Shown here piece after piece: positions 18,549 to 20,695 of a stretch of DNA of 64,000 bases. The notes below the pieces were generated by a model, which was not told where the DNA came from, did not search any database, and saw only the letters and a program-made list of their open reading frames with translations. Source of the stretch: Escherichia coli (GTDB lineage Bacteria > Pseudomonadota > Gammaproteobacteria > Enterobacterales > Enterobacteriaceae); the NCBI RefSeq assembly GCF_003334765.1, contig NZ_QOWT01000005.1; one strand, given 5' to 3'. Numbering within the stretch: position 1 is the stretch's first letter; each line of letters opens with the position of its first letter. The translations under genes were made by a program, and so were the position numbers.

Positions 18549-19619
18549 ATGAAGCTGGTTGAACACTACATCATGCGTGGTACGCGCCGTCTGGTGCTGA
18601 TTATCGTCGGTTTTCTGATCTTTATTTTCGCCAGCTACTCCGCACAGCGTTATCTGACCGAAGCGGCAAATGGGACCTTAGCTCTTGATGTTGTGCTGGA
18701 TATCGTTTTCTACAAAGTGCTGATTGCACTGGAGATGTTGTTACCTGTTGGTCTGTATGTGTCAGTTGGCGTGACGCTAGGGCAGATGTATACCGACTCG
18801 GAAATTACCGCTATCTCTGCGGCGGGGGGCAGTCCGGGACGCTTGTACAAAGCCGTTCTTTATCTGGCGATACCGCTAAGTATTTTTGTCACCCTTCTGT
18901 CGATGTATGGTCGGCCGTGGGCTTATGCGCAGATTTATCAACTGGAGCAACAGTCGCAGTCGGAGCTGGATGTTCGCCAGTTGCGGGCAAAGAAATTTAA
19001 CACTAACGATAACGGACGAATGATCCTTTCGCAGACGGTTGATCAGGATAATAATCGCCTGACTGACGCGCTGATTTATACTTCTACTGCCAATCGAACC
19101 CGCATTTTCCGCGCCCGTTCGGTTGATGTGGTTGACCCATCACCTGAGAAACCGACCGTTATGTTGCATAACGGGACCGCCTATCTTCTCGATCATCAGG
19201 GGCGTGACGACAACGAACAGATCTACCGTAATCTGCAATTACATCTGAATCCGCTGGATCAAAGCCCTAACGTCAAACGCAAAGCAAAATCGGTCACGGA
19301 GCTGGCGCGCTCCGCCTTTCCTGCCGATCATGCCGAACTGCAATGGCGACAAAGCCGTGGCCTGACAGCATTGTTGATGGCGCTGCTGGCCATTTCATTA
19401 AGTCGGGTAAAACCGCGGCAAGGGCGATTTTCAACGTTATTGCCACTGACGTTGCTGTTTGTTGCCATTTTTTATGGCGGCGACGTCTGCCGTACGCTGG
19501 TGGCTAACGGTGCGATTCCCCTCATTCCTGGTTTGTGGTTAGTACCCGGACTCATGCTAATGGGCCTGCTGATGCTGGTCGCACGCGACTTCTCTTTGCT
19601 GCAGAAATTTTCCCGATGA
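18549..19619 (+). CDS. LptF-like permease (YjgP/YjgQ family), paralogue not part of the canonical lptFG locus
   Basis: 356 aa; N-terminal TM helices, a periplasmic domain, then C-terminal TM helices, the typical LptF/LptG layout. Confidence 0.7.
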   Translation: MKLVEHYIMRGTRRLVLIIVGFLIFIFASYSAQRYLTEAANGTLALDVVLDIVFYKVLIALEMLLPVGLYVSVGVTLGQMYTDSEITAISAAGGSPGRLYKAVLYLAIPLSIFVTLLSMYGRPWAYAQIYQLEQQSQSELDVRQLRAKKFNTNDNGRMILSQTVDQDNNRLTDALIYTSTANRTRIFRARSVDVVDPSPEKPTVMLHNGTAYLLDHQGRDDNEQIYRNLQLHLNPLDQSPNVKRKAKSVTELARSAFPADHAELQWRQSRGLTALLMALLAISLSRVKPRQGRFSTLLPLTLLFVAIFYGGDVCRTLVANGAIPLIPGLWLVPGLMLMGLLMLVARDFSLLQKFSR

Positions 19620-20695
19620 ATGTTTTCAGTCGCTATTTAATCCGTCATCTCTTTCTCGGTTTTGCCGCCGCCGCAGGGCTATTGCTGCCGCTTTTTACCA
19701 CCTTCAACCTGATTAACGAACTGGATGATGTCAGCCCGGGCGGTTATCGCTGGACTCAGGCGGTGCTGGTGGTGCTGATGACCTTACCGCGTACACTGGT
19801 CGAACTTTCGCCGTTTATCGCATTATTGGGAGGGATTGTTGGCCTGGGGCAGTTATCGAAAAACAGTGAGCTTACCGCCATTCGCAGCACTGGGTTTTCT
19901 ATCTTCCGTATTGCACTGGTGGCGCTGGTTGCCGGGATATTGTGGACTGTTTCGTTAGGCGCGATAGATGAGTGGGTGGCGTCGCCATTGCAGCAACAGG
20001 CGCTGCAAATCAAATCGACTGCCACCGCGTTGGGGGAGGACGATGACATTACCGGCAATATGCTTTGGGCCAGGCGCGGTAATGAATTTGTGACGGTGAA
20101 ATCGCTGAACGAGCAGGGCCAGCCTGTGGGCGTGGAGATATTTCATTATCGCGACGATCTCTCGCTCGAATCCTACATTTTTGCACGCAGTGCCTCCATT
20201 GAAGACGACAAAACGTGGATCCTGCATGGTGTGAATCATAAAAAATGGTTGAATGGCAAAGAAACGCTGGAAACATCAGATAATCTTGCCTGGCAATCGG
20301 CCTTCACCAGTATGGATCTTGAAGAGTTATCGATGCCGGGGAATACTTTTTCTGTCCGTCAGCTTAATCATTACATCCATTATTTGCAGGAAACCGGACA
20401 ACCCAGCAGCGAATACCGCCTTGCACTGTGGGAAAAACTGGGGCAACCGATCCTGACCCTGGCGATGATTTTGCTGGCTGTGCCGTTCACCTTTAGCGCC
20501 CCGCGCTCGCCAGGGATGGGTAGCCGTCTCGCTGTAGGCGTCATCGTTGGCTTACTCACCTGGATCAGCTATCAAATCATGGTCAATCTGGGGTTGCTAT
20601 TTGCGTTGAGTGCACCTGTTACCGCGCTCGGTTTACCGGTAGCGTTTGTGCTGATGGCGTTGAGCCTGGTGTATTGGTATGACAGACAACATTAA
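19616..20695 (+). CDS. LptG-like permease (YjgP/YjgQ family)
   Basis: 359 aa from MNVFSRYLIRHLFLGF (characteristic LptF/G N-terminus); ATG overlaps upstream stop (ATGA). Confidence 0.75.
   Translation: MNVFSRYLIRHLFLGFAAAAGLLLPLFTTFNLINELDDVSPGGYRWTQAVLVVLMTLPRTLVELSPFIALLGGIVGLGQLSKNSELTAIRSTGFSIFRIALVALVAGILWTVSLGAIDEWVASPLQQQALQIKSTATALGEDDDITGNMLWARRGNEFVTVKSLNEQGQPVGVEIFHYRDDLSLESYIFARSASIEDDKTWILHGVNHKKWLNGKETLETSDNLAWQSAFTSMDLEELSMPGNTFSVRQLNHYIHYLQETGQPSSEYRLALWEKLGQPILTLAMILLAVPFTFSAPRSPGMGSRLAVGVIVGLLTWISYQIMVNLGLLFALSAPVTALGLPVAFVLMALSLVYWYDRQH

Follow-up and report, generated by a model that had tools for sequence, protein, structure and literature searches.

A second LptF/LptG pair in the sphingolipid module of Escherichia coli and its probable role as an LptB-powered lipid extractor

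Why does an Escherichia coli chromosome that already encodes the LptF and LptG permeases of the lipopolysaccharide (LPS) exporter carry a second such pair beside genes for making a sphingolipid? The pair, here called lptF2 and lptG2, lies on the plus strand at positions 18549 to 20695 of the 64,000-nucleotide stretch of E. coli DNA analyzed here (the window), which represents the hyb-gss-pitB-yghTSRQ...yghO-glc region of the chromosome, and it converges with an operon headed by the serine palmitoyltransferase gene, spt. The DNA of the pair is 100% identical in several complete genomes, e.g., that of strain PF9285. Our preferred answer, to which we give a probability of about three in four and which leans on the analogy with Caulobacter crescentus, is that LptF2 and LptG2 form the transmembrane heterodimer of a second Lpt-type ATP-binding cassette (ABC) extractor, one that would be dedicated to the ceramide-based lipid made by spt-acpR-cerR-aasR and yghO and powered by LptB.

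The two proteins are full-length members of the LptF/LptG family (Pfam PF03739), one of the LptF type and one of the LptG type. LptF2 (356 amino acids [aa]; 18549 to 19619) scores 319.8 bits on the NCBIfam LptF model TIGR04407 (cutoff, 230 bits), covering profile positions 2 to 346 of 347, and LptG2 (359 aa; 19616 to 20695) scores 305.1 bits on the LptG model TIGR04408 (cutoff, 240 bits), covering positions 2 to 349 of 351; on the opposite models the scores are low, at 68.9 and 86 bits. The genes share a 4-bp ATGA overlap. A longer lptG2 frame starting from a GTG at 19535, which appeared in the mechanical list of open reading frames, was rejected, as the RefSeq annotation and the uniformly 359-aa orthologs fit the ATG at 19616. 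LptF2 has 30% global identity to LptF of strain K-12, and LptG2 has 28% identity to K-12 LptG (27 to 28% across comparisons); the pair are diverged paralogs of the housekeeping proteins.

All solved LptF and LptG chains are matched end to end, as PDB sequences, by LptF2 and LptG2, and both proteins have the layout of three transmembrane helices, a periplasmic beta-jellyroll, and three further transmembrane helices. For LptG2 this layout is seen in an AlphaFold2 model (pLDDT, 90.7; pTM, 0.83), with predicted helices at residues 3 to 140, jellyroll strands at 150 to 227, and helices at 247 to 358, and the model superimposes on the LptG chains of E. cloacae (6mit_G) and V. cholerae (6mjp_G) with Foldseek TM-scores of 0.85 to 0.87. 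For LptF2 it is indicated by the profile and PDB-sequence matches together with the hydropathy plot, which has a hydrophilic middle between three and three hydrophobic segments. One apparent difference, N31/D37/D38 in LptG2 in place of K34/K40/K41 in E. coli LptG, was considered as a charge reversal diagnostic of the substrate, and it was rejected because nearly all of 140 representatives are acidic at that place; the canonical LptG of P. aeruginosa (5x5y_G), which has IDELND there, further rules it out.

The pair faces spt (minus strand; 20730 to 21902) across a 34-bp spacer that holds a 27-nt hairpin. The initial annotation had described two overlapping genes with the LptF/LptG layout, convergent with a lipid operon and separated from it by this hairpin, and it proves correct in every particular, with one refinement: the pair is not free-standing. 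Instead, lptF2 and lptG2 close a compact block of genes on one strand, yghS-yghR-yghQ, a gene for a 274-aa hypothetical protein, a ytfJ-like gene, lptF2, and lptG2, with gaps of -4 to 45 bp. The minus-strand operon and yghO, which lies beyond it, are the E. coli genes for Spt, AcpR, CerR (Epi), AasR, and the N-acyltransferase.

Distribution within the species was examined in 5,426 complete E. coli genomes, with coverage of at least 80% of the query as the threshold for counting the pair, the operon, and the module. The DNA of the canonical lptF-lptG genes, with K-12 as the query, is present in 5,426 of 5,426, and the extra pair is present in 4,132, in 4,106 of them at or above the threshold (about 76%). 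At the species level, the pair is therefore separate from the essential LPS transporter genes, as the initial annotation had held, and is not the sole lptFG copy. The pair nearly always occurs together with the spt operon, which is found in 4,068 genomes, and the entire 13-kb module is found in 4,052; the module was fully covered in 10 of 12 evenly spaced rows of the genome ranking; of the other complete genomes, about 770 carry part of the module and about 600 carry none of it. E. coli UTI89 carries it intact. In K-12 (locus L015; NC_000913.3, 3130146 to 3131340), an IS5 element (insH9) has a truncated yghQ on one side and yghO on the other, in the place of window positions from approximately 16840 to 24844. 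Absent are the 3' end of yghQ, the 274-aa reading frame, the ytfJ-like gene, both lptF2 and lptG2, and the complete spt operon. A single IS5-associated deletion removed the pair along with the spt operon and made K-12 a natural deletion mutant of the whole pathway. Since K-12 and about 24% of complete genomes lack the pair while all have canonical lptFG, the pair is dispensable for LPS export. In a comparison of two E. coli lineages with approximately 3% divergence, all of the compared genes are intact, with dN/dS values of 0.070 (lptF2), 0.073 (lptG2), and 0.076 (spt); selection therefore maintains the pair as it does the biosynthetic genes.

The linkage extends beyond E. coli. LptG-type proteins with 64 to 75% identity to LptG2 occur in Hafnia, Shimwellia, Citrobacter, Serratia, Erwinia, Pantoea, Sodalis, and Pluralibacter, among many Enterobacterales. 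In all three genera inspected, Hafnia, Serratia, and Erwinia, the same 13-gene module is present, with yghT divergent from yghS-yghR-flippase-hypothetical-YtfJ-LptF-LptG and accompanied by spt-acyl carrier protein (ACP)-reductase-ligase and yghO. The chromosomal neighborhoods are different, and Serratia has its spt operon on the opposite side; across genera, gene order is kept at 65 to 85% protein identity.

An exhaustive search over 1.84 billion cluster representatives showed that beyond these enterobacterial orthologs the next-best full-length relatives of LptG2 fall to 30 to 45% identity. Genomic context was judged from 12 single-protein look-ups, 3 of which were uninformative, e.g., because of short contigs. 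Three relatives, P0126 (45% identical), P0140 (37%), and P0236 (31%), lie in complete clusters of spt, ACP, reductase, and AMP-ligase genes; P0131 (37%) adjoins a yghO homolog and head-group genes, and P0137 (36%) adjoins a DAGK_cat kinase gene, a desaturase gene, and a cyclopropane-synthase-like gene. The co-occurrence of the pair with the Spt operon thus holds in the E. coli counts, in three other enterobacterial genera, and among distant relatives from metagenomes and metagenome-assembled genomes (MAGs). In a neighbor-joining tree calculated without support values, all of the spt-linked LptG-type proteins fall on the side of the E. coli paralog and apart from K-12 LptG, which is far away. 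Pairwise identities agree, with 33 to 45% between LptG2 and the spt-linked LptG2-type proteins and 27 to 28% between LptG2 and K-12 LptG, and the LptF-type proteins of two distant loci (L004 and L005) score 231 to 281 bits with LptF2 compared to 79 to 89 bits with K-12 LptF. These comparisons suggest that the spt-linked pairs are likely of single origin, with support that weakens at the deepest node, represented by locus L017. Family, fold, paralogy, purifying selection, and linkage to spt genes across genera are properties observed for the pair itself.

The proposal of a second LptF/LptG pair for sphingolipid export has already been published as a kind of system, and the E. coli locus has been shown in that connection. 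In Caulobacter, CC_1156 and CC_1155 (CCNA_01214 and CCNA_01213) were named LptF2 and LptG2 in 2024 and proposed to transport sphingolipids selectively, with orthologs noted in beta- and gammaproteobacterial clusters (Nitrosomonas eutropha and Azotobacter vinelandii as well as Pseudomonas luteola) (PMC11324152). A 2026 preprint reports that Caulobacter tolerates deletion of lptF2, lptG2, and lptC2 only in an spt or cpgB mutant background, i.e., when the anionic sphingolipid is not made, that LptF2 and LptG2 copurify with each other and with LptB in pull-downs, and that many sphingolipid loci of alpha- and gammaproteobacteria contain lptF2 and lptG2; its Fig. 2B draws the sphingolipid operons of E. 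coli UTI89 beside those of Caulobacter and Sphingomonas (bioRxiv 10.64898/2026.04.12.717747). The suggestion in the initial annotation of a dedicated exporter for the lipid product, possibly working with LptB, had been made from sequence alone and arrived at the same conclusion as this published work.

The likeness between the two species is known from these papers and from locus content. C. crescentus, like E. coli, has its second LptF/LptG pair beside a canonical one and within a locus of spt-acpR-cerR-aasR and cerS, and neither has a second lptB; the mechanism proposed for the two is the same, an LptB-powered sphingolipid extractor. Only the Caulobacter locus has LptC2, a flippase candidate of another type (CC_1166), and head-group genes for ceramide phosphoglycerate (CPG2), whereas only the E. 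coli module has yghT, yghS, and yghR, yghQ, the 274-aa hypothetical protein, and the YtfJ-like protein. Function has been demonstrated in Caulobacter only, and it is from the Caulobacter homologs that we infer the substrate, the ATPase partner, and the destination for the E. coli pair.

Compared with the canonical E. coli LptB2FG(C) complex (lptF, b4261; lptG, b4262; PDB 6MHU, 6MIT, and 6S8H), LptF2 and LptG2 share family, length, fold, and the glutamates of the coupling helices, and in both cases the genes are adjacent and overlapping in the order F and then G. The two pairs differ in sequence (28 to 30% identity), in distribution (universal, at 100%, versus accessory, at approximately 76% of genomes), and in gene context (pepA and holC versus sphingolipid synthesis). 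They are also predicted to differ in substrate, which is hexa-acylated lipid A-core for canonical LptFG and would be a two-chain lipid of the ceramide type for LptF2 and LptG2.

If these proteins form an extractor, which ATPase drives it? The coupling-helix glutamates that contact the groove of LptB are E84 in LptF and E88 in LptG (PMC5082905). E85 of LptF2 aligns with the former and E85 of LptG2 with the latter. Residues Y81, E85, A91, and G93 of LptF2 are the same as Y80, E84, A90, and G92 of canonical LptF, and the G96 position is also kept in the coupling-helix comparison of the pair. The glutamate E85 is nearly invariant in an 82-sequence LptG alignment and invariant in a 10-sequence LptF alignment. 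No ABC_tran gene was found within the module in E. coli, Serratia, Hafnia, or Erwinia or in the informative spt-cluster loci, and a regular-expression search for the ABC signature motif found no ATPase in the window and no match in YghR, YghS, or YghT. The lack of an ABC ATPase in the modules, taken together with the kept coupling-helix glutamates, fits the LptB option. A tblastn search with LptB found KpsT (54626 to 55303), the sole ABC ATPase in the window, 34 kb from the pair; KpsT is implausible as the partner, as it belongs to a KpsMT capsule exporter that has its own permease, KpsM, and lies in a low-GC island.

The alternative that survives best, although we regard it as unlikely, also has the pair exporting the lipid, but with a motor encoded in the module other than LptB, e.g., YghR, YghS, or YghT, or with the lipid handed to the YtfJ-like protein instead of the Lpt bridge. 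The block does encode three P-loop proteins and a YtfJ-family protein in each of the four genera, the ytfJ-like gene lies only 30 bp upstream of lptF2, and no LptC2-like gene was found in the enterobacterial module. The three P-loop proteins were nonetheless rejected as hidden ABC nucleotide-binding domains, since their resemblance to ABC ATPases is confined to the Walker A stretch, the remainder resembles dTMP and nucleotide kinases, and the ABC signature motif is absent. Furthermore, distant spt clusters have LptF2 and LptG2 without YghR, YghS, YghT, or YtfJ-like genes, and these are therefore no general requirement of the transporter; the binding of LptB by Caulobacter LptF2 and LptG2 and the retention of the coupling-helix glutamates also argue against a separate motor.

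Under the preferred reading, that of a sphingolipid extractor driven by LptB, a ceramide-type lipid would be made at the inner membrane by the products of the spt-acpR-cerR-aasR operon and yghO and would then be flipped, perhaps by the MOP-type protein YghQ encoded three genes upstream. LptF2 and LptG2 would use their conserved coupling helices to bind the single LptB dimer of the cell, and the assembled extractor would draw the sphingolipid from the inner membrane so that it can be delivered to the outer membrane, perhaps over the shared LptC/LptA/LptDE bridge or perhaps by way of a module-specific factor. The linkage to spt, the lack of an ABC ATPase in the module, the kept glutamates, and the Caulobacter analogy all support such a dedicated exporter.

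Several points weigh against this reading. Our literature search turned up neither a description of a native E. coli sphingolipid nor a link between yghQRST and sphingolipids. Because its promoter regions have a very high AT content, the module may not be expressed in laboratory culture. Both genes are named as LPS exporters by the NCBIfam equivalog models, and an LPS substrate is compatible with the sequence alone. Orthology with Caulobacter LptF2 and LptG2 is inferred from the papers and from the intermediate spt-linked relatives, the LptG tree having neither bootstrap values nor a Caulobacter sequence. For two of the relatives no sphingolipid genes were seen nearby: P0132 stands alone, and P0141 has an LptB-like ATPase as its neighbor on a contig that is short. 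Finally, the pair in L017 is almost equidistant from the E. coli paralogs and the canonical proteins (150 versus 119 bits and 142 versus 134 bits).

The compatibility with LPS raises a second alternative, namely, that the pair is a spare or specialized LPS extractor, for modified lipid A or another glycolipid, and that its position beside spt is incidental. Both proteins score above the curated cutoffs of the LPS-exporter models, RefSeq names them lptF and lptG, and the modeled fold of LptG2 is indistinguishable from LPS-bound LptG structures. An incidental position fits poorly, however, with a linkage to spt that has outlasted rearrangement in four enterobacterial genera and is still seen in relatives of as little as 31% identity. 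The absence of the pair from K-12 and from roughly one in four E. coli genomes, all of which have canonical lptFG, also argues against it, as does the finding that essentiality of the Caulobacter paralogs depends on sphingolipid synthesis and not on LPS. We therefore consider a spare LPS extractor very unlikely. That the pair and the whole module are a silent relic that no longer serves a function in E. coli, as might be suggested by the lack of any E. coli sphingolipid report in our literature search, by the more than 1,300 complete genomes besides K-12 that have no intact module, and by the AT-rich intergenic promoter regions, is highly improbable given the intact genes in two diverged lineages with dN/dS of 0.07 for lptF2, lptG2, and spt, the gene order kept across genera at 65 to 85% protein identity, and the enzymatic activity of Spt, AcpR, and AasR from E. 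coli B (PMC9386255).

Four of the distant loci, L004, L005, L011, and L017, look like sphingolipid clusters of the ceramide phosphoglycerate (CPG) type. Like the E. coli module, they have the five ceramide genes (Spt, 55 to 61% identity; YghO, 50 to 54%) and LptF2-LptG2 (29 to 45%), and they have no ABC ATPase. They also have DAGK_cat kinase, CDP-OH_P_transf, Metallophos, and NTP_transf genes, all of which are missing from the enterobacterial module, and L017 alone has an LptA-like gene. The difference in accessory genes implies a different, undescribed head group for the enterobacterial lipid and perhaps a module-specific periplasmic factor or carrier. A broader scenario, possible but with the odds against it, is that approximately three-fourths of E. 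coli and many Enterobacterales make an undescribed outer membrane sphingolipid that has been missed owing to the loss of the locus from K-12. YghR, YghS, and YghT would build its head group in place of the CPG pathway, and its export would proceed through YghQ and through LptF2 and LptG2 on the shared LptB, possibly with the YtfJ-like protein as a carrier replacing LptC2.

If the one LptB of the cell does serve LptF2 and LptG2 as well as the essential LPS exporter, two envelope-lipid export systems would compete for one motor, which would bear on outer membrane homeostasis. In the many clinical strains of E. coli that carry the second pair, it would also bear on drugs that target LptB2FG, such as macrocycles of the zosurabalpin class. 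The genetic and structural toolkit available for E. coli Lpt is well suited to studying how one ATPase serves two extractors and how each selects its lipid. K-12, the deletion mutant of the pathway, is the standard laboratory strain. There is also an annotation problem. RefSeq, through PGAP, gives the paralogs the same names as the canonical pair ("lptF" and "lptG, LPS export ABC transporter permease"), and therefore approximately 4,100 complete E. coli genomes hold two identically named pairs with the same implied LPS-exporter function; the NCBIfam equivalog models fail to separate the paralogs of sphingolipid loci from canonical LptF and LptG.

The remaining genes of the module are as follows. 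In the minus-strand operon, spt matches NF047599 with 599.4 bits (cutoff, 500) and is followed by acpR (21902 to 22150), a specialized acyl carrier protein gene with ACP family matches, cerR/epi (22182 to 23096), encoding an NAD-dependent epimerase or reductase of the ceramide pathway with matches to short-chain dehydrogenase/reductase (SDR) and epimerase families, and aasR (23093 to 24844; the start is 24817 in RefSeq), encoding a fatty acyl-AMP ligase or acyl-AcpR synthetase that scores 870.9 bits on NF006624. CerR has 40 to 44% identity to the equivalent proteins of distant spt clusters. On the plus strand, yghO (25188 to 26330) encodes a homolog of bacterial ceramide synthases and acyl-coenzyme A N-acyltransferases; it has no Pfam or NCBIfam match, and its 50 to 54% identity is with genes at the same position in L004, L005, L011, and L017. 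Spt (ECD_02854), AcpR (ECD_02853), and AasR (ECD_02851) of E. coli B have been characterized biochemically by Padilla-Gomez et al., who found that Spt uses acyl-AcpR; in that work epi is ECD_02852 and yghO, called aca, is ECD_02850 (PMC9386255).

Upstream of lptF2 on the plus strand is the gene for the periplasmic YtfJ-family protein (17955 to 18518; TIGR01626, 216 bits), which has a signal peptide and is cysteine free. It has no solved relative by sequence in the PDB, and its gene is kept at the same position in Serratia, Hafnia, and Erwinia and is absent from distant spt clusters. The preceding gene (17122 to 17946) encodes the 274-aa hypothetical protein, which is specific to the enterobacterial module: orthologs in Serratia, Hafnia, and Erwinia are 60 to 68% identical, no relatives were detectable outside the module, and there was no match in NCBIfam, Pfam, or PDB. 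yghQ (15773 to 17122) is a flippase candidate of the MOP or Polysacc_synt type, with a weak MOP flippase match of its own and Pfam Polysacc_synt matches on its orthologs; a homolog with 28% identity adjoins LptF2 and LptG2 in L011. At the start of the module (13358 to 15727) are yghT on the minus strand and yghS and yghR on the plus strand, P-loop kinase-like paralogs of 230 to 252 aa with 37 to 45% mutual identity and weak dTMP-kinase matches, a trio kept in Serratia, Hafnia, and Erwinia.

The hairpin between lptG2 and spt (20697 to 20723, within the spacer at 20696 to 20729) is GC-rich, with a 10-bp stem and a 7-nt loop. For the plus strand the folding energy is -22.7 kcal/mol (z = -4.2 versus shuffled sequence), and for the minus strand it is -30.6 kcal/mol (z = -4.8). 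A scan placed the hairpin on the minus strand, where it has a T-rich tail and 16 pairs when G-U is counted, and no U-tract follows it on the plus strand, so that by sequence it looks like an intrinsic terminator for the spt strand only. No Rfam families were found across 13 to 27 kb of the window. In the AT-rich divergent intergenic region between yghT and yghS, the word ATTGTCACAAT occurs twice at 14129 to 14155, once with a mismatch, with the copies 16 bp apart and overlapping a promoter-like match. The second copy, ATTGTCACAA, is exact in Hafnia, where the first is partly kept, and neither was seen in Erwinia or Serratia. The repeat may be a regulator site, with a word count that is not significant over the whole window, and the two AT-rich divergent promoter regions have no common word of at least 10 nt.

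Far from the pair, downstream of the sslE-gsp type II secretion genes, is the low-GC island noted above (53793 to 60107; 31 to 44% GC), which encodes capsule ABC exporter subunits of the KpsM/KpsT type followed by proteins of 1,169 and 332 aa; these have no NCBIfam match and are presumably products of serotype-specific capsule synthesis genes.

Two observations concern the distant CPG-type clusters. An HIT-like protein of 142 to 160 aa with the motif HFHV(I/L)PRY is encoded in all three of L004 (5377 to 5841), L011 (5409 to 5891), and L017 (7876 to 8304), with 54 to 60% mutual identity, and has no counterpart in the E. coli module. In L017 (MAG GCA_947259915.1), within a complete sphingolipid cluster, the LptA-like gene (8315 to 8803, minus strand) is divergent from the LptF2-LptG2 pair and encodes a 162-aa secreted protein that matches Pfam LptD_N and, across 160 residues, has 25% identity to E. 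coli LptA. The Caulobacter preprint found no lptA duplication in sphingolipid loci and lptC2 to be restricted to Caulobacter (bioRxiv 10.64898/2026.04.12.717747); the L017 gene looks like a counterexample to the former statement.

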